A stretch of 64,000 nucleotides of DNA, taken from Oscillospiraceae bacterium (lineage in GTDB: Bacteria > Bacillota > Clostridia > Oscillospirales > Acutalibacteraceae). The stretch covers positions 8,459 through 72,458 of the forward strand of contig WRED01000003.1 of NCBI GenBank assembly GCA_009779495.1, in the 5' to 3' direction. Position 1 is the first letter of the stretch; each line of letters starts with the position of its first letter. The notes under the pieces were generated by a model, which was not told the DNA's origin, made no database searches, and saw nothing but the letters and a program-made list of their open reading frames with translations. The position numbers and the translations under genes are program-made. Shown piece after piece: positions 4,074 through 48,641 of the stretch.

Positions 4074-5282
4074 ATGGATCAAAAAATAAAACACGCGGGA
4101 TATCGGTCGTATCAGGGAATGATGCGCGTGGCTTCCGGCTTTGTGGACTGGTCTCAGCCCGACGTGCTCCGCGGCGCGGGCTGTGTCAAAAAGCTCGCTG
4201 TGCTGCTGATGTCCAGAGGCGTCAGCAACGCGCTGGTCGTTACCGACAAGGGACTGGTTGACTTTCATTTGATCGACGGTCTGCTCGAGGAGCTTCGGAA
4301 AGAAAAGATCAAATACACGCTTTATGACGGCGTCCAGCCGAATCCGACCGTCGAAAACGTCGAGGAGGCGCGCCAGCTGTTTTTGGACGCCGAGTGCGAC
4401 GCCATCGTCGCTTTCGGCGGCGGTTCGCCCATGGACTGCGCGAAGGCCGCCGGCGCGAGGATATCAAATCCCAACACGCCGGTCCAAAAGCTGCGGGGCC
4501 AGCTGAAGGTGTACAAAAGGCCGCCTCTCCTGTTCGCCGTTCCGACGACGGCGGGCTCAGGCTCCGAGGCCACGGTCAGCGCTGTGGTTTTAGACGAAGC
4601 GGCCCATGAAAAGTACGCCATCAACGACCCGAAGCTGCGCCCGAAATACGTGGTTCTCGACCCTGAGCTTACCGTGGGCCTGCCGCCGCACATCACGGCC
4701 ATCACGGGCATGGACGCGCTGACCCACGCGGTGGAATCGTATATCGGCCGCAGCAACACAAAGCAGACGCGCGGCAACGCGGAGAAAGCCGTCAAGCTGA
4801 TCTTTGAGAATCTGGAGAAAGCGTATCAGAGCGGGGAAAACATGGAGGCGCGGGAAAACATGCTGATCGCCGCCTACCACGCGGGACTCGCGTTCACGCG
4901 GGCGTATGTGGGCTACGTCCACGCCATCGCCCATGCCATAGGCGGGCTGTACGGCACACCCCACGGCCTTGCCACCGCCGTCATACTCCCCTATGTGCTT
5001 GACTATTACGGCGAAAGCGTCGCGGCCGACCTGGACGATCTCGCAGAGTTGGTCGGCATCGACCGGGAAAGCAATGGTGAAAGCCCCCACGCGTTCATCA
5101 CGGCCATACGGGAGATGAGCGCACGGATGGACATCCCCGAGACGTTTGACGTGATCAAAGACGAGGACGTCGCGCTGATCGTCAGCCGCGCGCTGGAAGA
5201 GGCAAACCCGCTGTACCCCGTGCCGAAGATCATGGACGCCGCCGACTGTGAAACGATCATCCGGCAAATCATGGGAAACTGA
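4074..5282 (+). CDS. iron-containing (group III) alcohol dehydrogenase
   Basis: GGGSPMDCAKAA nucleotide-binding motif and the His-rich metal site VHAIAHAIGGLYGTPHG. RBS AAGGGAG. Confidence 0.9.
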   Translation: MDQKIKHAGYRSYQGMMRVASGFVDWSQPDVLRGAGCVKKLAVLLMSRGVSNALVVTDKGLVDFHLIDGLLEELRKEKIKYTLYDGVQPNPTVENVEEARQLFLDAECDAIVAFGGGSPMDCAKAAGARISNPNTPVQKLRGQLKVYKRPPLLFAVPTTAGSGSEATVSAVVLDEAAHEKYAINDPKLRPKYVVLDPELTVGLPPHITAITGMDALTHAVESYIGRSNTKQTRGNAEKAVKLIFENLEKAYQSGENMEARENMLIAAYHAGLAFTRAYVGYVHAIAHAIGGLYGTPHGLATAVILPYVLDYYGESVAADLDDLAELVGIDRESNGESPHAFITAIREMSARMDIPETFDVIKDEDVALIVSRALEEANPLYPVPKIMDAADCETIIRQIMGN

Positions 5283-5305
5283 GCGAAAGATTTATTTAAC
5301 GCGAA

Positions 5306-5340
5306 AAGGGGCGGATTGAATTCCGCCCTTAAGTTAATTA
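5306..5340 (+). terminator. putative intrinsic terminator after the alcohol dehydrogenase gene
   Basis: Stem GGGCGGA (5309-5315) / TCCGCCC (5322-5328) is followed by a T-rich tract, TTAAGTTAATTAT. Confidence 0.5.
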
Positions 5341-5343
5341 TAG

Positions 5344-5805
5344 ATGAAAGTGGATGAAATTTTGAAAAAAGCAATTATCGCTTGCTTGGCAATAGTATTA
5401 GTCGCCGCGGGAGCTGTTTCGTTTTTTGTTTACGGCTATTATCGTCAGCCGTTAGTCACGGGAAACGTCAAGAATTTGTCTACAATAACTGTCATTAAAG
5501 ACGGTTTCAATCAAGACGGAATAAAAAAAGCTCTGGCGCCGTCAGACGCAAAAGCTCTGTTCGAGGAAATTAAAGGCACAAAGACAATGGCCGTAAGACA
5601 CCCTAAGCAGCTTGACCGTATGCATCTTGACTCATTATATATAATCGAAGTATATTATAAAAATGGAAAAGTGGATACGATTTACACGACAGAGGTACTG
5701 AAACTTTTCAGATTTATTGATACCAAAGGCCCGGATGGTGATTCGGGTTATATGTTAAGCAGTAAAAACGAAAAAATATTTTCCCTGCTGGAAAATTACT
5801 TTTAA
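5344..5805 (+). CDS. hypothetical membrane-anchored protein in an AT-rich islet
   Basis: 153-aa ORF with one N-terminal TM helix (AIIACLAIVLVAAGAVSFFVYGYY). A hand count of one 60-nt line gives about 30% GC, against about 58-60% in the flanks. The RBS is weak. Confidence 0.5.
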   Translation: MKVDEILKKAIIACLAIVLVAAGAVSFFVYGYYRQPLVTGNVKNLSTITVIKDGFNQDGIKKALAPSDAKALFEEIKGTKTMAVRHPKQLDRMHLDSLYIIEVYYKNGKVDTIYTTEVLKLFRFIDTKGPDGDSGYMLSSKNEKIFSLLENYF

Positions 5806-5867
5806 TTCCTTGAAAGATACATACGGATTCAATCGTATGCCAATATCTGAATAAGGATAGATAAATT

Positions 5868-6749
5868 ATGAGCTTTGACATTGTAACCGACTCGCCGGCA
5901 AACCTCCCCGCTGATCTGATCGAAAAATACGGCATACACGTGCTGAACCTGCCCATATTCGCCGGAGCAACAGAATATCCGAGCTACGAAAAGGGCCGTG
6001 ACTCCTATCAGATGTTCTACGACATGATGCTCGCCGGGCAGGAGCTTACCTCCTCCCAAACCGGCCCCGCCGAATGCGAGCGGGTATTCGGCGGCATTTT
6101 GGCGCGGGGGCGCGATTTGCTTTACCTGGGCTTCTCGTCCACCTTGAGCGGAACGTATCAAAACGCCGCCATCGCCGCCGCCGATCTGCGGGAAAAATAT
6201 CCTGAAAGAAAAGTCCTGACCGTCGATACGCTGTCCGCTTCAGCGGCGCAGGGATTGCTTGTGCTCAAGGCCGCGGACATGCGCGGCGAGGGGCGCGGCA
6301 TTGAGGAAACGGCCGCCTGGGTCGAGGAAAACCGCCTGCGCGTGTGCCACTATTTTACGGTTGACGATTTGAAGTACCTGAGGCGCGGCGGACGGATATC
6401 CGGCTCGGCAGCGGCCATGGGAACGGTTCTCAGCATCAAGCCAGTGCTGACAATGGACAGAAACGGGCGGCTCGTTCCCGCCGGCAAGGTTCGCGGCAGG
6501 AAAGCGGCGCTCAACGCCCTTGTCGAATATATGCGGGAGAAGCTTGACCTTTCGGCGGAGCTTTCGGCTTCCGATCCCCCTGTATTCATTGCCCATGCCG
6601 ACTGCCCGGACGACGCCGCGTACCTCGAGGGCAGAATCAAAGAGCTGTACGGAACGCCGGAGGTTAGGACGGTCATGCTCAATCCCCTGATCGGCAGTCA
6701 CACGGGGCCGGGGACGATCGCGCTGTTCTTTTTCTGCAAAGAAAGATAA
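5868..6749 (+). CDS. DegV family fatty-acid-binding protein
   Basis: The N-terminus MSFDIVTDSPANLPADLIEKYGIHVLNL and the overall length are typical of the DegV/EDD fold. RBS AAGGA. Confidence 0.85.
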   Translation: MSFDIVTDSPANLPADLIEKYGIHVLNLPIFAGATEYPSYEKGRDSYQMFYDMMLAGQELTSSQTGPAECERVFGGILARGRDLLYLGFSSTLSGTYQNAAIAAADLREKYPERKVLTVDTLSASAAQGLLVLKAADMRGEGRGIEETAAWVEENRLRVCHYFTVDDLKYLRRGGRISGSAAAMGTVLSIKPVLTMDRNGRLVPAGKVRGRKAALNALVEYMREKLDLSAELSASDPPVFIAHADCPDDAAYLEGRIKELYGTPEVRTVMLNPLIGSHTGPGTIALFFFCKER

Positions 6750-23707: not shown

Positions 23708-23751
23708 ATAATGCAATTTGTGTTTTTACTAAGTCGAAAGGATTGATTAAA

Positions 23752-24939
23752 ATGAGCCTTCTAAACAAAAAAACAGTGGAGGATATCGACGTAAGAGGCA
23801 AGCGCGTACTCGTTCGCTGCGACTTCAACGTGCCGCTCCTGAACGGGCAGATCACCAGCGAAAAGCGCATCGTGGCGTCGCTTCCGACGATCCGGTATCT
23901 GATTGACAACGGAGCGAGAGTCATCCTCTGCTCGCATTTAGGCAGACCCAAGGGGTTTGACCCGGACGTCTCGCTGGCCCCCGTGGGCGAGCGTTTGTCC
24001 GACCTGCTGGGCATTGACGTCAAGATGGCGTCGGACGTCGTGGGCGAGAGCGCGCAAAAGCTCTCGTCGGAGCTGAAAGACGGCGAAGTGATGCTCGTCG
24101 AAAACGTGCGCTTTGAAAGCGGCGAGACGAAAAACGATCCCGAGCTGTCCAAAAAATTCGCGGCGCTTGCCGACGTGTTTGTGAACGACGCGTTCGGCTC
24201 GGCCCACCGCGCCCACTGCTCCACCACCGGCGTGGCCGACTATATCCCGGCGGTCTGCGGCTACCTCATTCAAAAAGAGATAGAGTTCATGGGCGGCGCT
24301 TTGGAAAACCCGAGGCGCCCGATGGTCGCGATTTTAGGCGGCGCGAAAGTGTCTGACAAAATCGGCGTCATCACGAACCTGCTTGACAAGGTCGATACGC
24401 TCATCGTCGGCGGCGGTATGGCCTATACATTTCTGGCTGCCCGGGGACATAACGTCGGCGACTCCATCTGCGAGCATGACAAGAAAGCGCTCGCTTTAGA
24501 TATGCTGAAAGCGGCGGAGGAAAAGAACGTGAAGTTTTTGCTTCCCGTGGATGAAAAGGTAGGGCTTGAATATTCGCCCCACACCGTGGCGAAAGTCGTC
24601 CCCTATGATGGCATTCCCGACGGCTGGATGGGCCTTGACATAGGCCCCGAAACGATGAAGATATTCGCGAAAGCCATTGAGGGCGCGGGCACGGTGATCT
24701 GGAACGGTCCCATGGGGGTTTCGGAGTGGGAGAACTTCGCCCACGGGACAATCGCCGTCGCCAAAGCCGTGGCGGAGTCCGGCGCGGTCACCATCATCGG
24801 CGGCGGCGATTCCGCGGCGGCTGTGCAGAAGCTGGGCTTCGCGGACAAGATGTCGCATATCTCCACGGGCGGCGGGGCTTCGCTTGAGCTGCTGGAGGGG
24901 AAAGTGCTTCCCGGCATAGCGGCTCTAAATGAACGCTAA
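23752..24939 (+). CDS. pgk: phosphoglycerate kinase
   Basis: [13 protein letters not shown] and GGGDSAAAV motifs. ATG at 23752 follows GAAAGGA. Confidence 0.93.
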
Positions 24940-24950
24940 AGCGTTCGAGG

Positions 24951-24980
24951 GATTAGGCGTTAGGAGTTAGGGATAAGGGG
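24951..24980 (+). repeat. 7-nt periodic array GATTAGG-CGTTAGG-AGTTAGG-GATAAGG between pgk and tpiA
   Basis: TAG at 24954, 24961 and 24968, an exact 7-nt spacing that puts one stop in each of the three frames. TAA at 24974. Confidence 0.7.
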
Positions 24981-25028
24981 TTGGAGCCGGGATTGTCCCG
25001 CCCCGCCATCATGAAAGGATGCGTTTTA

Positions 25029-25793
25029 ATGAACAAACAGCTAAGAAAACCCGTCATCGCGGGCAACTGGAAAATGAACAAGACGCCGGTTGAAACAACC
25101 GCGCTCATAAACGAGATCAAACCTTTGGTCAAGGACGCGTCCTGCGGCGTGGTCGTGTGCGTGCCGTACATTGACCTGTTCGCCGCGCTGGAGGCGGCGA
25201 AAGGCAGCAATATCAAGGTCGGCGCGGAAAACTGCCACTGGGCGAAAAGCGGCGCGTTCACGGGCGAGGTTTCGGCCGATATGCTCGCGTCTATCGGCGT
25301 ACCCTACGTGATCATCGGGCACAGCGAACGCCGCCAGTATTTCGGCGAAACGGACGTCACCGCGCGTGACCGCGTGAGGGCCGCCCTCGACGCGGGGCTG
25401 ACCGTGATCCTCTGCGTCGGCGAGCTTTTAGAAGAGCGGGAGCAGAACATCACCATGGAGATCATCGGCAAGCAGATCAAAATCGCGCTTGCGGGCGTGA
25501 CTGCCGCAGAGCTTGAGCGGGTGATCATCGCTTATGAGCCGGTCTGGGCCATCGGCACGGGCCTTACGGCGACGGCGGAACAGGCCAACGAGGTCAATAA
25601 GGCCATACGCGGACTCATTGAACAGCTGTATTCCAAGGCCGACGCGGATAGTATCGTCATCCAGTACGGCGGTTCCATGAACGCCCAAAACGCCGCCGAA
25701 CTGCTCGGCCAGCCTGACGTGGACGGCGGGCTGATCGGCGGGGCGTCCTTGAAGGCCGCTGACTTCGCGAAGATTGTCGAAGCGGCCTGTTAG
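25029..25793 (+). CDS. tpiA: triosephosphate isomerase
   Basis: PVIAGNWKMNKT, IIGHSERR and AYEPVWAIGTG motifs. ATG at 25029 follows AAAGGA. Confidence 0.93.
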   Translation: MNKQLRKPVIAGNWKMNKTPVETTALINEIKPLVKDASCGVVVCVPYIDLFAALEAAKGSNIKVGAENCHWAKSGAFTGEVSADMLASIGVPYVIIGHSERRQYFGETDVTARDRVRAALDAGLTVILCVGELLEEREQNITMEIIGKQIKIALAGVTAAELERVIIAYEPVWAIGTGLTATAEQANEVNKAIRGLIEQLYSKADADSIVIQYGGSMNAQNAAELLGQPDVDGGLIGGASLKAADFAKIVEAAC

Positions 25794-25866
25794 AAGCGAG
25801 AAAAAAGTATCAAGACGCGGTTCCGTTAGAGTCCGCGTCTTGAATTGTTATGAAAGGATTGTTTTT

Positions 25867-27387
25867 ATGTCCAGAAAACCTGTGCTTTTATGTATCCTCG
25901 ACGGCTACGCCAATAACCCCGAAGCTTACGGCAACGCCATCAAGGCCGCCAAAACGCCGAACCTTGACCGCATATTCGCCGAAAACCCGGCGACATCTAT
26001 CGGCGCGTCCGGCATGGACGTGGGCCTGCTCGACGGGCAGATGGGCAACAGCGAGGTCGGCCACACGAATATCGGCGCGGGCCGCGTAGTCGTTCAGGAG
26101 CTGACAAGGATCACAAAATCCGTCATTGAGGGCGATTTTTTCACAAACCCCGTGCTTCTGCGGGCAATCGAAAACTGCAAGGAAAACGGCTCGGCCCTCC
26201 ACCTGATGGGGCTTGTGTCCGACGGCGGCGTGCACAGCCACAGCACGCACCTGTACGCCCTGCTTGAGCTTGCGAAGAAACAGGGTCTCGGCAGGGTGTT
26301 CATTCACTGTCTGCTGGACGGGCGCGACGTGCCGCCCATGTCGGGCAAGGAATACATCGCCGATCTGCAATGCAAAATCGACGAAACCGGCGTCGGCCGG
26401 ATCGCCACCGTCATGGGGCGGTACTACGCCATGGACAGGGAAAGGCGCTTTGAGCGCGTGGAAAAGGCGTACCGCGCCATGGTGTACGGCGACGCGCCTG
26501 TGTTCACGGACGCTTGCGACATGATGGCGCTTTCCTACGAAAACGGCGTGACGGATGAATTCGTCGTGCCGTGCCGTGCCGCTGACGCGGAGCCTGTAAA
26601 GGCAAACGACAGCTTCGTCTTCTTCAACTTCCGCCCCGACCGCGCCAGGGAGATCACCCGCGCCTTCGTGGACGACAGCTTTGACGGCTTTGCCCGTGGC
26701 GAAAGGCTGCCGCTTTATTACGTCTGCATGACGCAATACGACGCCGATATGCCCAATGTCGCCGTCGCTTTCGCGCCCCTGGCCGTCATCGACATGCCGC
26801 TTGGAGCGGTTCTGAGCCAAAACGGGCTTCGTCAGCTCAGGATCGCGGAGTACACGAAGTACGCCCACGTGACGTTTTTCCTCAACGGCGGCGAGGAGAC
26901 CGTCTATCCGGGCGAGGACAGGATACTCATCGACTCGCCCGACGTGCCGACCTACGACCTCAAGCCGGAGATGAGCGCCTATGAGGTGACGGACACGATC
27001 GTCGATAAAATCGAAAAGGACATGTACGACGTGATCGTGCTGAACTACGCCAACTGCGACATGGTCGGCCACACGGGCGTGTTCGGCGCGGCTGTCGCGG
27101 CGGTTGAGACCGTGGATACCTGCGTGGGGCGCGTATGGGACGCGGTCTCAGCGAAAGGCGGCGTCATGTTCATCACGGCGGACCACGGCAACGCCGACAA
27201 GATGTATGAGCCGGACGGCTCTCCTTTCACGGCGCACACCACGTTCCCGGTGCCGTTTGTCGTGCTGGGGTATCCGTGCGGGCTGCGGGAGGGCGGCAGG
27301 CTGTGCGATATTTCGCCGACGGTTTTGCGGGTTCTTGGGCTTGCGCAGCCGGAGAGTATGACGGGGGTAAGCCTAATCGCCGAATAA
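25867..27387 (+). CDS. gpmI: 2,3-bisphosphoglycerate-independent phosphoglycerate mutase
   Basis: PVLLCILDGYANNP and MGNSEVGHTNIGAGR motifs. The ORF-track N-terminal extension overlaps the tpiA end and is rejected. Confidence 0.92.
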   Translation: MSRKPVLLCILDGYANNPEAYGNAIKAAKTPNLDRIFAENPATSIGASGMDVGLLDGQMGNSEVGHTNIGAGRVVVQELTRITKSVIEGDFFTNPVLLRAIENCKENGSALHLMGLVSDGGVHSHSTHLYALLELAKKQGLGRVFIHCLLDGRDVPPMSGKEYIADLQCKIDETGVGRIATVMGRYYAMDRERRFERVEKAYRAMVYGDAPVFTDACDMMALSYENGVTDEFVVPCRAADAEPVKANDSFVFFNFRPDRAREITRAFVDDSFDGFARGERLPLYYVCMTQYDADMPNVAVAFAPLAVIDMPLGAVLSQNGLRQLRIAEYTKYAHVTFFLNGGEETVYPGEDRILIDSPDVPTYDLKPEMSAYEVTDTIVDKIEKDMYDVIVLNYANCDMVGHTGVFGAAVAAVETVDTCVGRVWDAVSAKGGVMFITADHGNADKMYEPDGSPFTAHTTFPVPFVVLGYPCGLREGGRLCDISPTVLRVLGLAQPESMTGVSLIAE

Positions 27388-27415
27388 AGCTGCCGTAAAA
27401 AGGGGGGAACCGCAA

Positions 27416-28375
27416 ATGAAAGTGTTTATCAGCTGGTCGGGTGACCTAAGCAACAGATTCGCGGCGAAGCTTGCCTCTTGGATTCGCTGCGTCATTCAAA
27501 ATGTAGAGGTTTTTTATTCTCCGGAGGATATTGAGAAAGGCGAAAACTGGAGCAAAAAACTGTCGGATGAGCTTGCGGGCAGCAACTTCGGGATCGTCTG
27601 TTTAACGCCGCATAACGTTACCGCCCCATGGATTCATTTTGAGGCGGGCGCTTTGGCAAAGGCCCTTGACTCGCGCCCGGCGACGCTGATGATCGGCGTC
27701 AAGGATTCCGACGTGAAAGGACCGCTTTCGCAATTCCAGAATACGAAGCTGGAAAAAGACGATATTTTCCGTCTGATGCAGGCTATTAACAGCCGTACTG
27801 AAAAACCGTTATCGCCTGATGTTTTGAGCCACACGTTCAACACCTTTTGGCCGGAGCTGGAAAGGCACATAAAGGAAACCCTGAAAAGCGGTTTTGATAC
27901 AGAACCGCCCGAACAACATAATGAAGAACCAAACGCCGAAGCGATAGAGGAAATATTGCGGATCGTCAGGAAGCTAGGCGGAAAGTCGGAAACCAAAGAT
28001 CAGAAAGTGATTGCGTTTCCTCCCAAAAATATCTATAATGGTTTTATTTCCCTTTCTAAGCTGAAAGAAATTCGTGAGGAAAAAGGGCTTTCTCTCTCTC
28101 AATTGGAATATATGTGTGATCTTCCTTTTGTGTTCCTTAAATGTGTTGAAGAAGGGACGCACTCAATCTTATTTCATGAGGCGGATAGAATTGCTAACGC
28201 GTTAGGCGTGTCTGTAGAAGATTTGATCGGATTTAACATAGCGGATCAAAAAAAAGGAGCTGACCCCCATGCCCTTCACCCCTCAAACCCTGGACTTCCT
28301 CACCGAAAACCGCCTGCAAAACAGCAGAGCCTGGTTCACGGAGCACAAGCCCGCCTACACCGAGCGTGTCCTTGA
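27416..28375 (+). CDS. TIR-domain protein fused to a C-terminal XRE-type helix-turn-helix domain
   Basis: Residues 1-140 carry a bacterial TIR signature (VFISWSGD, SPEDIEKGENW, GIVCLTPHNVTAPWIHFEAGAL; candidate catalytic Glu76). Residues 212-272 match the XRE HTH pattern (LKEIREEKGLSLSQLEYM...EEGTHS...IANALGVSVEDLIG). Strong RBS AAAAGGGGGGA. The last 107 nt overlap the next gene. Confidence 0.75.
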   Translation: MKVFISWSGDLSNRFAAKLASWIRCVIQNVEVFYSPEDIEKGENWSKKLSDELAGSNFGIVCLTPHNVTAPWIHFEAGALAKALDSRPATLMIGVKDSDVKGPLSQFQNTKLEKDDIFRLMQAINSRTEKPLSPDVLSHTFNTFWPELERHIKETLKSGFDTEPPEQHNEEPNAEAIEEILRIVRKLGGKSETKDQKVIAFPPKNIYNGFISLSKLKEIREEKGLSLSQLEYMCDLPFVFLKCVEEGTHSILFHEADRIANALGVSVEDLIGFNIADQKKGADPHALHPSNPGLPHRKPPAKQQSLVHGAQARLHRACP

Positions 28376-28940
28376 GCCGCTGCGTGAGCTGGTCATAAAG
28401 CTCACGCCCGCGATGCTCGCCATTGACCCGCTGTTCATCGTTGAGCCGAAAGTTGACCGCACGATCTCGCGCATCTACCGCGACACGCGCTTTTCAAAGG
28501 ATAAGTCCCTTTACCGCGACATGATGTGGGCCGTCTTTATCCGCGACAAAAAGCTTTACGACGGCCTGCCCGCGTATTATTTTGAGCTGTCGCCCAACGG
28601 GTTCAGATACGGCATGGGCTATTATCAGGCGGGCGCGGCGTCCATGGACAGCTTCCGCAAGCTGATCACGGACAGGGATAAAGCTTTCCTGGAAGCCCTG
28701 GAATGCTATGAAAATCAAAGTGTATTCAAAATCGAGGGCGACGATTATAAGCGCGGCAGATATCCCGAATGGCCCGAAAACTTCCGCGAATGGCTGGACA
28801 AAAAGAGCTTCCACTTCGCGCATAACAGCACGGACTTTGATCTGCTGTTTTCGGAGCTGCTGCCGAACAGACTGGCGGAGGATTTCGCGGCGATCAAGCC
28901 GATATATAATTTTTTGTGCGTTGTCGAACAACGGAAATGA
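28269..28940 (+). CDS. DUF2461 (TIGR02453-like) family protein
   Basis: MPFTPQTLDFLTENRLQNSRAWFTEHKPAYTERV...ISRIYRDTRFSKDKSLY is characteristic of the family. RBS AAAGGAG. Confidence 0.75.
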   Translation: MPFTPQTLDFLTENRLQNSRAWFTEHKPAYTERVLEPLRELVIKLTPAMLAIDPLFIVEPKVDRTISRIYRDTRFSKDKSLYRDMMWAVFIRDKKLYDGLPAYYFELSPNGFRYGMGYYQAGAASMDSFRKLITDRDKAFLEALECYENQSVFKIEGDDYKRGRYPEWPENFREWLDKKSFHFAHNSTDFDLLFSELLPNRLAEDFAAIKPIYNFLCVVEQRK

Positions 28941-28950
28941 ATAAAAAACT

Positions 28951-28991
28951 ACGGACGAACGACTCATCATCGTTCGCCCGTCTTGTTTTTT
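28951..28991 (+). terminator. intrinsic terminator after the DUF2461 gene
   Basis: ACGGACGAACGA (28951-28962) pairs with TCGTTCGCCCGT (28970-28981) with one mismatch, followed by CTTGTTTTTT. Confidence 0.75.
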
Positions 28992-30931: not shown

Positions 30932-31420
30932 TTAATAGCCTAATGTCCCTGTAAGAGACTCGTCGTTTTCAATCCACTCATGAACATCTACAACACGATA
31001 ATGGTCCTTGCCGTCTCTTATGTATACCGTTGAAATACCTGCGTTGATGATTAACCTTTTACACATGGCGCAGCTATTTGCATTTTCCACATAGTTACCC
31101 GCGCTTACATCAATACCGGCGAGATACATTGACCCTCCCATCATTTCCTTTCTTGACGCGCTTATAATAGCGTTTGCTTCCGCGTGGACGCTGCGGCAAA
31201 GCTCATACCTTTCGCCGCGGGCAACTTTCTTTTCTTCCCGTATACACACTTTCATATCGGTGCAATTTTTTCTTCCGCGCGGAGCTCCGACATACCCGGT
31301 CGATATGACCTCGTCGTCTTTTACGATAACGGCGCCATAATGTCTCCTTACACAGGTACATCGCTTTGATACTTGCTCCGCTATGTCAAGATAATAATTG
31401 ATTTTGTCACGCCTGCTCAA
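30932..31420 (-). CDS. deoxycytidylate (dCMP) deaminase, ComEB-like
   Basis: Zinc motifs HAEANAI and SCAMCKRLI. TTG start lies 6 nt after GGGGAG. One 60-nt line hand-counted at about 40% GC. Confidence 0.85.
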   Translation of the reverse strand: MSRRDKINYYLDIAEQVSKRCTCVRRHYGAVIVKDDEVISTGYVGAPRGRKNCTDMKVCIREEKKVARGERYELCRSVHAEANAIISASRKEMMGGSMYLAGIDVSAGNYVENANSCAMCKRLIINAGISTVYIRDGKDHYRVVDVHEWIENDESLTGTLGY

Positions 31421-39456: not shown

Positions 39457-40629
39457 TTAATCCTCCGTACTTTCATTCACTTGTTTACCCGATCTTCCGT
39501 GATATACCGCACCCGCTACCGCAAGTAACGGCCCTTTTACAAACATTATCACCCACAGAATTATGCAGAAAATGCATAAAGTAATATCGTACGTGAGCAT
39601 ATGCTTCACACGCCTCCAGCCTACGTTTTGCCACGCCGTCATGATGAGAACCACCGCCAGCGCGGGAAGCGGTATCCTTGCGGTTATGGGCTTCATCGCC
39701 GCGAAAAGTACAAGCGTCAGCCCCGCTCCGACCGCGCCCGAAAGCGGACTCCACCGCTCCGTGTTGACGGCCACGGGAACCCCGCCCAGCGCGCCGCTGA
39801 GAATGTTGCCTATTCCCGCCGCAAGTCCCGCTCTTTTGCCGCCCGATCCGTCCTCGATCAGGTACGACGTCAGCATACCCGCAAACACTAAAGCTATGAT
39901 TACCGCATACACGATTCCATAAAAAAGCGAAATCCGAAAATCCGGGAACAGCGCGTTTTGCAACAGCGAACCCGCCGCAAACGAATACGCCCCCGCCTCG
40001 CTTATGGCCGTAGTTTCGGCGGCGGGATTCAGAAAGAGGTTCAAAACAAGCGTCACCGCCACGGCGATGAACGACGCCGGAAGCTTCTTCGACAGCGACT
40101 TGAATTTCTTCGGGAATGTGATCATGACCACCAGCACAATCGTGCCGTACAGTACGCCGCGCCAGTTCGGGTGAAAGCCCAGCGAGAGATAACTGCGTAT
40201 CATCGTCAGCGCATCATCCCCGGACGCCCCGATGCCGAAGTAGTTGTTCGTCTGCATGGCCGTCACCAAAAACGCCGCCGCCGCGCCGAGTCCCGCCGTT
40301 TCCGGCGTGACCAGAACTTTTTTCAGCCTTTCGGCCGGGGCAAACGCGAGCACCGTCGTAATGACCCCCGCCGCGCAAACGGACGCCATGGCAAGCCCCG
40401 TGCCGCTGACCGCCTGCGCCGACGAGAATATGATAAAAAGGTAAACCGCCTGCGGCGACATGCCGCCCGAGAACGCGCCCAGCGCCGACGCTATGGCCGC
40501 GCCGATCATGCCCGAATTCATCCCCGCGCCGGTACACGCGCCCATGGCGGCGTACAGCGGGAAAACGAACAGCGCCGAGGTCACGCCGGGCATAACCGCC
40601 TGTGAGATTTTCTCTCCTTTATTTTTCAC
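39457..40629 (-). CDS. SulP-family-like anion permease without a STAS domain
   Basis: Polytopic, Gly/Ala-rich helices (AGIGNILSGALGGVPVAVNTERW). The start is uncertain: GTG at 40629 or ATG at 40593. The ORF-track N-terminus (to 40758) is a translation of a class B repeat copy. Confidence 0.55.
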   Translation of the reverse strand: MKNKGEKISQAVMPGVTSALFVFPLYAAMGACTGAGMNSGMIGAAIASALGAFSGGMSPQAVYLFIIFSSAQAVSGTGLAMASVCAAGVITTVLAFAPAERLKKVLVTPETAGLGAAAAFLVTAMQTNNYFGIGASGDDALTMIRSYLSLGFHPNWRGVLYGTIVLVVMITFPKKFKSLSKKLPASFIAVAVTLVLNLFLNPAAETTAISEAGAYSFAAGSLLQNALFPDFRISLFYGIVYAVIIALVFAGMLTSYLIEDGSGGKRAGLAAGIGNILSGALGGVPVAVNTERWSPLSGAVGAGLTLVLFAAMKPITARIPLPALAVVLIMTAWQNVGWRRVKHMLTYDITLCIFCIILWVIMFVKGPLLAVAGAVYHGRSGKQVNESTED

Positions 40630-40654
40630 ACTACCATGCCTTTCGCAGTACGCG

Positions 40655-40753
40655 GAAGTTTTGGGCGTTCCGCTTGCGGATTTGCGCCGTTCTATTTGGC
40701 GCAAAAGCACAAAACTTCCCGTTTGAAATAAAATCAAAAATTTTATTTCAAAC
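40655..40753 (-). repeat. class B repeat module, diverged copy E
   Basis: Contains GTTTGAAATAAAATC..TTTTATTTCAAAC (40721-40753) and the 10-bp inverted repeat GGAAGTTTTG / CAAAACTTCC. The string AAGCACAAAACTT is shared with copy D. Confidence 0.55.
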
Positions 40754-40891
40754 TTCATGCACCTATTCTACATTAAAATAAAAAAATTAACAAGACTATT
40801 TTAGTATTTTTTGTATACAAACATACATTGTTGTGATAGACTATGAAAGAATATCTTAACTTTAGTCACATGAAAGGCTTGATAAACAGGG

Positions 40892-41881
40892 ATGGCAAAA
40901 AAAATAGCGACTTGGATCGCCGTGCCCGCGATGATTCTGATTTTCGTTTTGGACATTATGACAGTGGCCTTGGGCAACCGTTATGTCGCGGCCGTCAGCG
41001 TTTCGCCCGAATTGTTTAACGAAAAAAACGGCGGCGACCGTATCCACTTCCTCAACACGTCCAATTCCGACGCGATCCTCATTGAAAGCAACGGGCGGTT
41101 CGCTATGATAGATTCCGGGGAGGGCAGCGAAAATCCCCGGCGCGACCCCGGCTATTACGGCTTTGAGGAGACTGTTTTGAGCTACCTAAAAAAGGCGGCG
41201 GGCGATGAAAACGGAAGAGTGCATCTGGATTTCATTTTACTCACGCACTATCATTATGATCACTCGGGCTGCCTCCATGCGATTTTGACCGACGACAGCA
41301 TAACCGTCGGCACGGTATACATGAAGCCCTACGACCCGTCTTTCGGCAAGAGCTATGAGCCTCATCGCTGGGGGCTGATCTCCATATACGAGCAGCTCGT
41401 CAGGGACGTCCGGGCCCGGGGGCTTGATCCTGTTGGCGTTTTGCCGAACGAGCCGTTTCCGTTCGGCAGCTTTACTTTGCAGTTTTACAACACCGTCACA
41501 CCGGAAACGCGGAAAAACAGCGGCGAAAATCTGACCTGCGTCGGCGTCAAGGTGACAAAGGGCGGACAGTCGGCGTTTTTGGCGTCGGACATCACCGCGA
41601 CCTCCGGCAGCGAGCAGGCGGTCAGGGGGCAGATCGGCGAGGTGACTCTTCTGAAAATCGCGCACCACGGCTACTACGGCTCGTCCACGGCAGGGTTTCT
41701 GCGCGAGCTTAAACCGAAGCTCGCCATTGTCACGAACGCTTTGGGAAAAATCTATCCGAACGTCAAGTGGAACCTCACGATGATCGCGCGGACGCCCGTT
41801 TTTTCCACGCACAACAGCGACGGGATCATCGCGTCGTTCACGGATGACGGAATGATTGTGCTGACAGACCACATCCACTAA
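40892..41881 (+). CDS. membrane-anchored MBL-fold metallo-hydrolase
   Basis: LLTHYHYDHSG (HxHxDH) motif and an N-terminal TM helix. Confidence 0.75.
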   Translation: MAKKIATWIAVPAMILIFVLDIMTVALGNRYVAAVSVSPELFNEKNGGDRIHFLNTSNSDAILIESNGRFAMIDSGEGSENPRRDPGYYGFEETVLSYLKKAAGDENGRVHLDFILLTHYHYDHSGCLHAILTDDSITVGTVYMKPYDPSFGKSYEPHRWGLISIYEQLVRDVRARGLDPVGVLPNEPFPFGSFTLQFYNTVTPETRKNSGENLTCVGVKVTKGGQSAFLASDITATSGSEQAVRGQIGEVTLLKIAHHGYYGSSTAGFLRELKPKLAIVTNALGKIYPNVKWNLTMIARTPVFSTHNSDGIIASFTDDGMIVLTDHIH

Positions 41882-41883
41882 GC

Positions 41884-42735
41884 TTACTTACCGTACTTCG
41901 TCAGCGGCCTGAACGTATACCCCTGCGCAACGGCGTAGTCGATGATGTCCCCGATGGCCGCCGCGTTGTCTGGCGACACCGAATGCAGCAAAATGACCGC
42001 ACCCGGATGCAGCCGCGACGTAACGCAGTCAAAGGCGAATTCCCTGCCTTTCGTCTTTTCCGTGTCCCAGTCCTCATAGGAGCTTGACCAGAATACCGAC
42101 GTCATGCCCATAGAGTCCACAAGCTCCAGCGCGCATTCCGTATAGGTGCCCTTGGGGAAGCGGAAGTACGGCGACGAGTAGCCGTACATCTCCCGCAGAT
42201 AATTTTCACAGGCTAAAATTTCCTGCACCATCCTGTCCCGGCTGATCTCGGAAAAATCCGGGTGGCGGTCGGTGTGGTTGCCGACGATGTGCCCCTCGCG
42301 TATCATGCGCGCGATCAGCTCCGGCTCCGACTTCATGTGGAACAGCGTGCAGAAAAACGCCGCCGGGATATTTCTCTCTTTCAGCGCGTCCATGATGACA
42401 TGCGTGTTACCGTTTTCATAGCCGCAGTCAAACGTCAGGTACAGGACCTTTTCCTTTGTTTTATTGTCGTATGCGAAAGCCGAGTAGCCGCATTTGTCAA
42501 AATACGCCTGATTGTCCACGGATATCTGATTCGGCCTGCCGTTTTTCGGAATGCCGTAGCTGTGCTCGATTTTTTTTGTCGGCAGCCTTCTCGTATTCTC
42601 CGGGTCCGCCGCGGTAAAGCTTATCGCGGGCAGGGGCGGAAACTCAGACGGCGCGGCGCAAACCGTTGCTGCGCCTGAAAGCAGTGCGGCTGCTACCGCG
42701 GCCGTCAAAGCGATAGAAAAAAATTTTTGTTTCAT
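41884..42735 (-). CDS. polysaccharide deacetylase (NodB homology domain, PdaA-like)
   Basis: Signal peptide. LTFDCGYENGNT and GNHTDRHPDF motifs. RBS AAGGAG. Confidence 0.85.
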   Translation of the reverse strand: MKQKFFSIALTAAVAAALLSGAATVCAAPSEFPPLPAISFTAADPENTRRLPTKKIEHSYGIPKNGRPNQISVDNQAYFDKCGYSAFAYDNKTKEKVLYLTFDCGYENGNTHVIMDALKERNIPAAFFCTLFHMKSEPELIARMIREGHIVGNHTDRHPDFSEISRDRMVQEILACENYLREMYGYSSPYFRFPKGTYTECALELVDSMGMTSVFWSSSYEDWDTEKTKGREFAFDCVTSRLHPGAVILLHSVSPDNAAAIGDIIDYAVAQGYTFRPLTKYGK

Positions 42736-42790
42736 TGTAAATAATTATCTCCTTAATATTGTATCAGCGGCCATGCGACATATAGTCAAA

Positions 42791-42815
42791 TAACCGCTGA
42801 TTAAATCAGTGGTTA
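42791..42815 (+). repeat. class A mini-copy (the two termini only)
   Basis: TAACCGCTGATTAAATCAGTGGTTA. The two class A termini are joined with no interior, and the same G-T mismatch position is present as in the long copies. Confidence 0.6.
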
Positions 42816-42887
42816 CTTAAACCGCTTGAATAATATTATGCGCAAATCTGACGAAAAGCACAGTAGCAATTCACGGCGCAAAATGAA

Positions 42888-42923
42888 GAACCTGTATTCA
42901 ACACCGGCATTGAATACAGGTTC
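42888..42923. repeat. 36-nt hairpin with GAACCTGT...ACAGGTTC ends
   Basis: Perfect 14-bp stem GAACCTGTATTCAA-CACCGGCA-TTGAATACAGGTTC. Confidence 0.6.
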
Positions 42924-42967
42924 AAAAAAAAGATGCCGCAAACAAAAGTTTACAGCATCTTTTTTTG
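42923..42967. terminator. bidirectional intrinsic terminator downstream of the small secreted protein gene
   Basis: Arrangement is A8, then AGATGCCGCAAAC-AAAA-GTTTACAGCATCT, then T7. Confidence 0.75.
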
Positions 42968-42978
42968 TTAAATAAAAT

Positions 42979-43233
42979 TTACGAACCCATTGCGAGCATA
43001 CCCATAAACGCCTGAATCGTCTGAACGATCATCTGAAAAACCGAACCCCATTCAACCATCCCAAGGAAATACTTGAACAGATCCAACACTTTCATGTCGC
43101 CCTCGTTGTCGTCTTCCGCCGCCTCAGCGACGCCGTCCGCGTAAGCGGTCTCCGTCGCGCTCGCGGTCATAAGCAGCGCCGAAACGCCCATCAGCATGGC
43201 CATGCAAAGGAAAATCGCGAGAAACTTCTTCAC
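42979..43233 (-). CDS. small secreted or membrane-active protein (84 aa)
   Basis: GTG start lies about 8 nt after AAGGGGG. Signal peptide KKFLAIFLCMAMLMGVSALLMTASA, an acidic stretch, then a hydrophobic or amphipathic C-terminus. Confidence 0.45.
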   Translation of the reverse strand: MKKFLAIFLCMAMLMGVSALLMTASATETAYADGVAEAAEDDNEGDMKVLDLFKYFLGMVEWGSVFQMIVQTIQAFMGMLAMGS

Positions 43234-45756: not shown

Positions 45757-45933
45757 CTACTTATACTTATGCTTGCGTGCGGCTTCCGACTTCTTCTTTC
45801 TCTTCACCGAAGGCTTCTCGTAGTGCTCCCTTTTGCGGACCTCCTGAATGATGCCGTCGCGGGAGGTCTGACGCTTAAAGCGCCGCAGAGCGCTGTCCAA
45901 AGACTCGTTTTCCTTTACTTTAACTTGACTCAC
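45757..45933 (-). CDS. rpsU: 30S ribosomal protein bS21
   Basis: [25 protein letters not shown] start at 45933 lies 8 nt after GGAGGGGAGGG and gives the canonical 58 aa. Confidence 0.9.
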
Positions 45934-46122
45934 TTTATGTTCCCTCCCCTCCATGATTCACAGGGGTTTTATAAAGAGTATAAACCCTTTGTTAGCCCGC
46001 CTTGTTCGGTCATGCCGCGTAAACGCGGCGCGACTCTCACTTCGTTGGCTAATAAAAACCATAGATCATTATACAACACCGCCGCGACAATGTCAACCTT
46101 TAAATTATAAAAATATTTTTTA

Positions 46123-46225
46123 TACTACTCCGCAATTAGAAACATAGAAAAAGTCAAGCAAAAAACTTCGATATATGGATTTTTGCGCAGACTTTTTCGT
46201 GTATGTTTCTTATTGCGGAGTAGTA
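46123..46225. repeat. class C hairpin element (103 bp), copy 2
   Basis: Arms TACTACTCCGCAATTAGAAACA / TGTTTCTTATTGCGGAGTAGTA. It lies 4 nt from the leuS stop. Relative to copy 1 it carries a compensatory GC-to-AT double change in both arms. Confidence 0.8.
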
Positions 46226-46229
46226 TTAC

Positions 46230-48641
46230 CTATTTTACAACGATATTGACAAGCCGCCCTTTCACATACAGCTCCTTCAAAACCGTCTTGCCCCGGAGCA
46301 TTTCCGCGATCTTCGGCTCCTCCTTCGCCATAGCGACAGCGTCAGCCTCCGCGATATCCGCCGGTACCGTGAGCTTCGCGCGCACCTTTCCGTTGATCTG
46401 CGCCACGATCTCAACGGTATCCTCCCTGCATTTTTCCTCGTCCCATGACGGCCACCTCTGTCCGCTGATCCCGCTGCCGAAATTGAGCGTCTGCCACATC
46501 TCCTCCGTCACATGCGGCGCGAAAGGATTCAGCAGCAAAAGAAAAATCCTCAGCTCCTCTTTCGTGACGCTCCCGCTGTCATAAAACATGTTCAGCAGCG
46601 TCATCAGCGCGGCGATGGCCGTGTTTCCCTTGAGGCTCTCTATGTCCTGCGAAACTTTCTTGATCGTACGGTGAATGTCGCCCTCCATCTCCGGGCGGAT
46701 TCCTTTCTGATTGCTGAACCCTAATTCCTGCAACGCCCACGTCCTGTCAAGGAAGCGCCTGCACCCCCTGATGCTGGCCGAGTTCCACAGCACGGCCTTT
46801 TCAAAGTCACCGATGAACATCTCGTAAAGACGGACGGTGTCCGCGCCGTTTTCGTCTACGATGTCATCAGGATTGACCACGTTGCCCCGGGACTTCGACA
46901 TCTTCTCGCCGTTTTCGCCCAAGATCATGCCCTGGCTCGTGCGCTTCGCGTACGGCTCCTTCGTCGGCACGACGCCGATATCGTACAAAAATTTATGCCA
47001 AAAGCGGCTGTACAGCAGGTGGAGCGTCGTATGCTCCATGCCGCCGTTGTACCAGTCAACCTCCGTCCAGTATTCAAGGGCTTCCCTCGACGCCACGGCT
47101 CCGCCGTTATCAGGGTCGCAGTAGCGCAAAAAGTACCACGACGAGCCCGCCCACTGAGGCATCGTATCGGTCTCGCGTTTCGCGTCCGCTCCGCAGCATG
47201 GGCACTTGACATTGACCCAATCGTCCAGCTTCGCCAGCGGAGACTCGCCGTTGTCCGTCGGCTCATAGCTTTCGACCTCCGGCAGCTTGAGCGGCAACTC
47301 GGACTCCGGCACGGGCACAAAGCCGCAGTGAGGGCATATCACGATGGGGATAGGCTCTCCCCAATACCTCTGGCGCGAAAACACCCAGTCGCGCAGCTTA
47401 AAGTTGACCTTGCTCTCGCCCTTGCCCGTCTCTGTCAGCCACCCGGTGATTTTAACTTTCGCGTCCTCCACGCTCAAATCGTTCAAAAAGCCTGAGTTGG
47501 CCATCACGCCCGTTTCGCAGTCGGTAAACGCTTCACGCTCTATGTCGCCGCCTTGTACCACCTCGATGATGGGTAGACCGAACTTTTTCGCGAACTCCCA
47601 GTCGCGCGTATCGTGCCCCGGCACGGCCATAATGGCGCCCGTGCCGTAGGATACGAGCACGTAGTCGGAAATGAAGATCGGTATCTCGTTTCCGTTGACG
47701 GGATTTACGGCGCGGACGCCCTTCAGCTCCACGCCCGTTTTTTCTTTGCTTAACTCCGTGCGCTCGAAGTCGGACTTGCGCGCCGACTCCTCCTGATACG
47801 CCTTGATCTCGTCAAGGTTCGTAAGACGGTCCGCCCATGTGTCAATCAGCGCGTGCTCGGGCGAAATGACCATGTACGTGGCGCCGAAAAGCGTGTCGGG
47901 CCGCGTCGTGTAGACGCGTATGTCGCCGCCGGCCGTGGTGTGGAAATCCACCTCCGCGCCGGTGGAGCGGCCGATCCAGTTTTTTTGCTGGAACTTGACG
48001 CGCTCGATATAATCCACCTCGTCCAGATCGTCTATCAGCCGCTGGGCGTAGGCGGTGATTTTCAGCATCCACTGGCTCTTGACCCGGCGCACGACCTCGC
48101 TCCCGCAGCGCTCGCAGCCGCCGCTTATGACCTCCTCGTTGGCCAGTACGCACTTGCACGACGTGCACCAGTTGACTGCCATCTCCTTTTTATACGCGAG
48201 CCCTTTCTCGAAGAGCCTGAGGAAGATCCACTGCGTCCATTTGTAATAATCGGGATCGGTGGTGTCCACCTCGCGGCCCCAGTCAAAGGAAAAGCCGATG
48301 GACTTGAGCTGCCGCTTGAACAGCGCGATGTTCCTCTCCGTCACGGCCCGCGGGTGTATTTTATTTTTGATGGCGTAATTCTCCGTCGGCAGGCCGAAAG
48401 CGTCCCACCCCATGGGATAGAGCACATTATAGCCCTCAAGCCGCCTTTTGCGCGCGACGACGTCGAGGCCGGTATAGGTGCGCAAATGCCCCACGTGCAG
48501 GCCGTTGCCTGACGGGTACGGGAACTCCACGAGGCAGTAATATTTCGGCAGGGAAAAATCCTGCTTCGCGGCGAAAGTTTTTTCCTCGTCCCATTTGTCC
48601 TGCCATTTTTTTTCGATCGATTTGAAGTCGTAGGTTTTCAT
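46230..48641 (-). CDS. leuS: leucine--tRNA ligase
   Basis: 803 aa with [18 protein letters not shown] (HIGH), KMSKSRGN (KMSKS) and the CP1 editing domain. Confidence 0.95.

Follow-up and report, generated by a model that had tools for sequence, protein, structure and literature searches.

A TIR-HTH fusion gene behind a glycolytic operon is a partner-less variant of the P2_AC1-type TIR defence family

Within a 64,000-nt stretch of Oscillospiraceae contig WRED01000003.1 (the window), an open reading frame (ORF) of 319 aa at 27416..28375 (+) encodes an N-terminal TIR domain and a C-terminal helix-turn-helix (HTH) domain of the XRE type. The gene encodes a known kind of defence protein in an unusual form, not a wholly new system. 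An earlier note on this DNA, written from its letters, had cited sequence motifs, every one of which is present in the ORF listing, and had found in the architecture no described defence system. The latter statement does not hold for the TIR half, which belongs to a catalogued and validated family (PDLC03016 / phrog_13899); what is undescribed is confined to the HTH tail and the partner-less state. Because the TIR half was already catalogued, the gene is more ordinary than the note had judged. We see about an even chance that this horizontally acquired member of the P2_AC1-type TIR family, which has no partner genes, works as a one-protein defence in which the HTH tail would receive the trigger and the TIR domain would cleave NAD+.

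The TIR module

The protein can be divided into four parts:
27416..27793 (+), aa 1-126: TIR domain with a flavodoxin-like fold (Pfam TIR_2, AlphaFold2, Foldseek, invariant W72/E76)
27794..27985 (+), aa 127-190: helical extension of the TIR module (PADLOC TIR-TM, phrog_13899, invariant columns, AlphaFold2)
27986..28048 (+), aa 191-211: disordered linker (pLDDT below 50 at 190-209; homologues diverge from here)
28049..28231 (+), aa 212-272: XRE/Cro-C1-type HTH (HTH_3, HTH_26, PADLOC models, AlphaFold2)

The two-domain architecture, as read from the letters before, was borne out by Pfam, with TIR_2 matching above and HTH_3 at the cut-off. TIR_2 covered residues 3-113 with E 2.7e-9 and 38 bits (cut-off 28). 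The AlphaFold2 (AF2) model of the whole protein had a mean pLDDT of 79, and residues 1-126 formed a confident alpha/beta domain with pLDDT mostly of 85-96. The comparison with known TIR structures proposed in the earlier note was made with Foldseek, which retrieved the SARM1, SPARTA and BtpA folds. The best matches were to NAD-cleaving TIRs, namely the TIR-APAZ protein of SPARTA (E 9e-5) and the TIR domains of SARM1, of the plant proteins RPS4, RPP1 and Roq1, and of BtpA/TcpB, with a probability of 1.0 to the SPARTA, SARM1, RPS4 and BtpA TIR domains.

The WxxxE motif, spanning W72 to E76, is intact. In PDB alignments, Glu76 (codon 27641-27643) falls on the catalytic Glu position of bacterial TIR NADases (7uxr; BtpA/TcpB 4c7m and 4lzp), with AbTIR (8g83) aligning to this region more weakly than 7uxr and BtpA/TcpB. 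A 60-sequence family alignment showed E76 to be invariant, along with W72, F75, G78, the SWSG at 6-9, D38, K41, G42, W45, C62-T64, G102-P103-L104 and Q108. The alignments and this invariance uphold the earlier placement of Glu76 at the catalytic-glutamate position, and the TIR domain is likely NAD-cleaving.

The extension was modelled as a long helix (134-159), an acidic loop and a second helix (174-189, 'AIEEILRIVRK'), which is conserved across the family with E179, L181 and R185 invariant. The segment between the domains had been described as an acidic low-complexity linker. This helix lies inside it, and the disordered linker is limited to residues 190-209.

Relation to the P2_AC1 system

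The PADLOC model PDLC03016, named 'TIR-TM', matched residues 1-186 with E 7.7e-63, far more strongly than the generic TIR_2. The match covers profile positions 1-190 of 293, the C-terminal third being replaced in our protein. The same module was delimited by the PHROGs family phrog_13899, up to residue 186/188 (E 1e-61), and a tblastn search of phage records located it in phage mEp390 and in Escherichia phage P2_AC1. The P2_AC1 TIR gene is preceded by two small same-strand genes, and the trio matched the PADLOC models 2TM-TIR (7e-58), 1TM-TIR (3e-75) and TIR-TM (3e-118). The gene modelled by PDLC03016 is the TIR component of the validated 2TM-1TM-TIR system. Since 'TIR-TM' scores on the TIR gene of this trio, the name marks a system with transmembrane (TM) partners and not a membrane-spanning TIR protein. 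The AC1 three-gene locus was cloned by Rousset et al. 2022 and protects against lambda, LF82_P8 and P2 (PMC9122126).

The window protein and the P2_AC1 TIR have in common the 190-aa module, with 46% identity over residues 1-153 and the same WxxxE, as well as a similar length (~280-315 aa) and a location on mobile DNA. They differ in that the XRE HTH replaces the helical tail of the AC1 type, and in that our gene resides in a housekeeping operon of a Gram-positive gut anaerobe, whereas the AC1 gene occupies a phage hotspot in E. coli. Moreover, our gene has no 2TM or 1TM partner: tblastn with PDLC02978 (2TM) and PDLC02977 (1TM) gave no match in the 64-kb window, and the flanking gpmI and DUF2461 genes leave no space for an adjacent partner gene. 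A search of the literature under 'TIR-TM' or '2TM-1TM-TIR' gave nothing relevant.

A mostly solitary family with interchangeable tails

The protein search yielded 2,403 homologue clusters. With one exception, the match of the top 120 was confined to the first 58-76% of the query, and beyond the helix 'AIEEILRIVRK' the sequences are unrelated. The 68 tails that could be delimited among these top 120 matches, each of ~100 aa, fell into at least 18 clusters, and a Pfam scan of the tails gave no family match for any except the HTH type. The family is thus built of a conserved 190-aa TIR module and a swappable ~100-aa tail. The tails of P0006, P0036, P0005 and P0112 share the pattern 'DFGPN..KV...L....GA.VEI', which by eye looked like the C-terminal domain of ribosomal L7/L12; the Pfam scan gave this assignment no support.

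As a rule, members of the family occur singly, carried by phages, plasmids and restriction-modification (R-M) islands. In mEp390, the gene is a lone moron between the Q and holin genes, and in a 4.7-kb mobilisable plasmid of Serratia it is the only cargo. On metagenomic contigs of Oscillospiraceae, homologues adjoin HpaII-type or EcoO109I-type R-M genes, in elements that have serine recombinases at their borders or carry Mob and integrase genes. At several loci (L007/L009, L003-L006), family members directly follow R-M operons with Vsr, Dcm and an EcoO109I-type enzyme, or with an HpaII-type enzyme. Membrane partners were rare. The 2TM and 1TM proteins gave no tblastn signal in the other fetched loci, and TM partners were present on two of the 71 IMG/VR viral contigs with the module, both near-identical to AC1. 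A hydropathy screen, which is independent of homology, placed a TM segment in the tail of none of 73 TIR proteins and found a TM-containing same-strand ORF just upstream in 10 of 66 loci. That the family is large, conserved and mostly solitary, and is found on small plasmids and as phage morons, argues for self-sufficiency.

The HTH tail and its sister protein

The profiles best matched by the HTH half were PADLOC Control_protein (E 6e-9) and capH (E 5e-6), and its PDB matches were C.Esp1396I, C.AhdI and DdrO. HTH_26 scored 22.9-23.3 bits against a cut-off of 22, which is borderline. In the AF2 model, residues 213-271 formed a helical bundle with pLDDT of 74-82.

The only other cluster combining TIR and HTH is a 278-aa protein from termite-gut metagenomes, P0002. 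The TIR modules of the two proteins are reciprocal best matches (77% identity over 1-126, 66% over 1-190), and the HTH halves share 39% identity. Between them, dN was 0.14 in the TIR domain, 0.50 in the helical extension and 0.71 in the HTH; dS was saturated, so dN alone is informative. As dN is low in the TIR domain and high in the tail, the former is strongly constrained and the latter fast-evolving. The TIR-HTH variant is rare and of single origin. With the HTH half alone, a word-indexed search gave no candidate, and an exhaustive HMMER search of 1.8 billion representative proteins revealed no close relative (best E 2e-10); the ten matches checked were all multi-HTH proteins, none with a TIR domain. 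The literature search returned no paper naming a TIR-HTH or TIR-XRE fusion.

We also looked for a split ancestor, and no separate HTH gene resembling the fused one was present beside any fetched family member. Given the members adjoining R-M genes and the best match of the HTH to R-M controllers, one may speculate that the fusion stems from a deletion between a TIR gene and an adjoining C-protein gene.

The P0002 gene is likewise a lone, AT-rich gene, with a third-position GC content (GC3) of 0.25-0.40 against 0.71-0.88 in its high-GC host. Its neighbours are an HD-domain gene and the following host gene; the latter begins 22 nt past the P0002 stop, and its N-terminus looks primase-like by eye. 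The P0002 locus (L001, 2628-2700) has kept an AT-rich leader of ~60 nt, unlike the window copy. There, a perfect 9-nt inverted repeat, TAAATATTT / AAATATTTA, brackets the start codon; it may be a candidate operator, or a chance occurrence in AT-rich DNA.

Composition, insertion site and transcription

The surroundings and the 3' end of the gene comprise the following features:
23743..27387 (+): host pgk-tpiA-gpmI (ORF listing, Pfam)
27388..27415 (+): spacer between gpmI and the TIR-HTH gene, with a GGGGGG ribosome-binding site at 27402-27407, 8 nt before the ATG
28248..28255 (+): A8 homopolymer in the slippery context A AAA AAA G (sequence reading)
28256..28375 (+): 39-codon zero-frame tail and stop (28373-28375), overlapping DUF2461 out of frame, without homologue
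28269..28940 (+): host DUF2461 gene, ATG at 28269 (Pfam DUF2461, E 4.6e-56; GC3 0.73)
28951..28981 (no strand assigned): 13-bp hairpin and T-run, scored on the - strand; no other strong terminator-like structure lies downstream of the unit

The gpmI stop codon (27385-27387) and the ATG at 27416 are separated by 28 nt. This gap and the gene's own ribosome-binding site, both reported before, agree with the coordinates and the GGGGGG run. The low GC content also noticed then is real, at 0.41-0.53 within the gene against 0.60-0.63 in gpmI. GC3 was 0.58 in the TIR part and 0.35 in the linker and HTH part, compared to 0.69-0.82 in the ten surrounding genes. By composition, the gene is foreign. A Logan per-run assembly (SRR10512951, L010) was 100% identical over gpmI, the TIR gene and DUF2461; the same junctions in a separate assembly mean that they are not an artefact of a single assembler, with the reservation that this assembly and the metagenome-assembled genome may rest on the same underlying reads.

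Three readable relatives, whose gpmI is 75-80% identical, have kept pgk-tpi-gpmI with other genes downstream and no TIR gene; these are convergent genes (L043) or GH16 and MFS genes (L044-L046). The relatives of DUF2461 in GTDB (31 loci, at most 70% identity) have neither gpmI nor a TIR gene nearby, and as gpmI is missing beside them, they are useless as an insertion test. Since the relatives lack the TIR gene and DUF2461 occurs apart from gpmI, the gene is lineage-specific at the gpmI/DUF2461 site. A degenerate pattern of the gpmI end and the DUF2461 start had no match in the metagenome collection, and the gpmI-end pattern alone matched one contig (L042). No empty site could be demonstrated because the collections contain no same-species genome; the nearest gpmI protein is 80% identical. 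The horizontal insertion proposed in the earlier note is hence upheld by the foreign GC3 and by the relatives without TIR, and lacks a true empty site; the opposite case, a host-like gene universally conserved at the locus, was not seen. We also inspected the flanks for borders of the transposon type, and there were no notable direct or inverted repeats. In L044/L045 (9064-11163), one gene of the AbiEii family and one of the MazE/SpoVT type are found a few kb past gpmI, and with such genes in a relative, the region past the glycolytic operon may be a recurrent landing place for accessory genes.

The spacer (27388..27415) contained no promoter-like site, terminator or inverted repeat, and no terminator-like site was found from 27000 to the hairpin at 28951, which we infer to terminate transcripts of the + strand. 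DUF2461 has its ribosome-binding site (AAGGAG, 28254-28259) within the final part of the TIR-HTH ORF. The genes pgk-tpiA-gpmI, TIR-HTH and DUF2461 form one apparent transcription unit. With no terminator between the genes and no promoter in the spacer, the TIR-HTH gene is probably read as part of the glycolytic transcript.

At the A-run, the window ORF reads GAT CAA AAA AAA GGA GCT GAC and continues for 39 further codons. In the -1 frame, or with an A9 allele, it would read AGG AGC TGA and stop at 28261-28263, giving 281 aa that end in DQKKRS*. P0002 has its stop ~10 residues past the HTH and ends in DQEKNS*. Because of this resemblance, the 281-aa form is the likely ancestral product, and the 39-codon tail most likely arose from a one-base deletion or a base-calling error. 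The short product could also be made by transcriptional or translational slippage at the A-run, in which case the gene would give two forms of the protein. Both domains are intact with either A8 or A9.

Proposed mode of action and alternative explanations

A one-protein sensor-effector is the best fit to these data and the most likely role. The protein would be made constitutively from the glycolytic operon transcript and kept inactive, with the C-terminal tail as its trigger-sensing or regulatory part. An infection cue, either DNA or a phage protein with affinity for XRE-type repressors, would act on the HTH tail and let the TIR domains assemble, the variable tail governing this assembly. The assembled TIRs would cleave NAD+, so that the infected cell no longer supports phage growth. 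TIR activity requires oligomerisation in SARM1, AbTir, SPARTA, and the TIR-STING and TIR-SAVED effectors. E. coli has one-protein TIR defences that respond to phage proteins and need the catalytic residue (PMC11350192).

Several observations weigh against a one-protein defence. In the sole validated relative, the TIR protein works with two membrane proteins and was proposed to be a signal-maker, not a direct killer (PMC9122126), and the literature yielded no functional test of a stand-alone family member. The TIR-HTH gene is known solely from metagenome assemblies, no promoter of its own was found, and the likely native stop codon of the ORF has been lost. HTH_3 matched residues 216-270 with E 8e-5 and a borderline 23.0-23.4 bits at a cut-off of 23. 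The recognition helix LPFVFLKCVEEG ('PFVFLKCVEEG') is, by inspection, unusually hydrophobic and without the usual polar residues; that of P0002, SFSTISHVTRSG, is canonical and polar (HTH_3 E 1.6e-8). The interdomain geometry of the AF2 model is uncertain, with a pTM of 0.57.

In a more specific, and unlikely, version, the HTH tail would serve as an integrated decoy or as a DNA-templating sensor, and its engagement would cluster the TIRs and start NAD+ cleavage, making the family a plug-and-play receptor. As a decoy, the HTH would mimic the XRE-type repressors that are bound, cleaved or displaced at the lytic switch of phages and mobile elements; as a template reader, it would bind invading DNA directly. 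The WRKY DNA-binding domain in the plant TIR-NLR RRS1 is a precedent for an integrated decoy.

In Thoeris, the TIR protein ThsB makes a signal for a separate effector. The window protein might similarly be an orphan generator of an ADP-ribose-derived signal whose effector is unlinked or lost; by itself the gene would then be inert, or it would rely on a partner elsewhere in the genome. The AC1 TIR, of the same family as our module, was proposed to signal to TM proteins, in that Rousset et al. put forward, as a hypothesis only, a nucleotide messenger passing from it to the membrane proteins (PMC9122126). We find this quite improbable here: no 2TM/1TM homologue turned up in the window or, with few exceptions, at the other loci, the hydropathy screen for TM segments gave mostly negative results, and the large, solitary family argues for self-sufficiency. 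The search for a partner in this genome covered 64 kb. We rate no higher the chance that the gene is a decaying remnant, that is, an acquired cassette no longer selected as a whole, with a degenerating HTH and a lost stop. The frameshift-like 39-aa tail, the hydrophobic recognition helix with the borderline HTH score, the high dN of the HTH and the missing promoter would all suit such decay. Nevertheless, no break occurs in either domain over 278 codons of AT-rich DNA, in which stops arise easily, the ribosome-binding site is good, and the TIR domain has kept all invariant residues and a low dN with saturated dS. Moreover, the frameshift alters no more than the two final residues, and slippage at the A-run may bypass it.

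The least probable explanation is a self-regulating toxin or addiction module, or a transcription factor, in which the HTH would bind an operator and repress its own or another promoter and the TIR domain would be toxic or signal-sensing. Parallels would be the RES-Xre toxin-antitoxin pairs, with their NADase toxin, and the C-protein or CapH regulators of defence operons. It draws on the best HTH matches being R-M controllers and capH, and on the AT-rich leader of L001 with its inverted repeat around the start codon, although that repeat may be due to chance. The window copy, however, has a host-like 28-nt spacer without inverted repeat or promoter-like site and is read through from gpmI, and elsewhere in the family, tails that do not bind DNA occupy the same position, which makes a transcriptional role of the tail in general unlikely. 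The autoregulated toxin-like module considered in the earlier note is thus weakened, as the window copy has neither a promoter nor an operator-like repeat and sits inside a glycolytic unit.

Comparison with known systems

P0002 is the closest counterpart, with the same two domains, a similar ending if the A-run is A9, and a position as a lone AT-rich gene among housekeeping genes of a high-GC host; it differs in its canonical HTH, its own ~60-nt AT-rich leader and its normal stop. The E. coli proteins TIR-V and TIR-IX (Wang 2024, PMC11350192) also combine, in one protein, a TIR that depends on its catalytic residue with a variable region. Compared by description, they have the reverse order, with a conserved C-terminus and a variable N-terminus, and no HTH was reported. 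The triggers of these defences are the portal and tail fibre proteins, and infected cells are killed faster (PMC11350192).

SPARTA provides the closest solved TIR structures, and the likeness extends conceptually to a TIR NADase that is switched on by nucleic-acid recognition through oligomerisation. No APAZ domain or Argonaute match was found in the window protein or its neighbours, and recognition of nucleic acid by the HTH is hypothetical. RES-Xre pairs, C proteins and CapH also tie an XRE-type HTH to a NAD-degrading or defence function. Theirs are separate, small, self-repressing proteins, whereas here the HTH is fused to the enzyme and neither an operator nor a promoter is visible; a RES domain and a CapP protease are also missing.

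There was no ThsA-type SIR2/SLOG or Macro-TM protein of Thoeris within ~10 kb, and the NCBIfam model ThcB4 scored 17 bits against a cut-off of 220. For CBASS/Pycsar, CAP12-PCTIR_TIR reached 15 bits (cut-off 24.7), and there was no SAVED, STING or cNMP-binding domain and no cyclase nearby.

Significance

The 2TM-1TM-TIR arrangement seems to be a minority configuration of a larger, mostly solitary family found in defence islands and on phages and plasmids. Most family members lack the 2TM and 1TM genes, so software that asks for the complete trio will miss them, and they are probably not called as defence genes. The HTH tail, being recognisable and easily assayed, offers a handle on how one-protein TIR defences are triggered. 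If the decoy or templating reading were true, the whole family would act as a single-gene immune receptor, one TIR module being fitted with exchangeable sensor tails. Both known TIR-HTH genes are bare single genes inside housekeeping operons, without mobility genes. If the protein is functional, a strong metabolic operon would drive a potentially lethal enzyme, whose activity would then have to be tightly controlled after translation.

Neighbouring genes

The usual partners of bacterial TIR effectors had been reported as missing, and we agree: within ~10 kb on either side, where the genes are housekeeping or metabolic only, there was no SIR2/SLOG, CD-NTase, SAVED, pAgo/APAZ, STING or reverse transcriptase. 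The neighbours are a class I aminoacyl-tRNA synthetase, a CN hydrolase, a 2-hydroxyacid dehydrogenase, an aminotransferase, pgk, tpi and gpmI, as well as DUF2461, GDPD, GNAT, dCMP deaminase, fucose isomerase and an FGGY kinase. The dCMP/cytidine deaminase ORF (30932-31420, -) has a GC3 of 0.47 against 0.69-0.82 in its neighbours, a departure like that of the TIR gene, with a weaker MafB19-like deaminase match (E 3.5e-9), and may be another acquired gene. Patches of low GC (0.38-0.40 in 400-nt windows) at 5201-6000, 40501-41100, 42601-43100 and 45801-46300 could be intergenic promoters or further acquired DNA.

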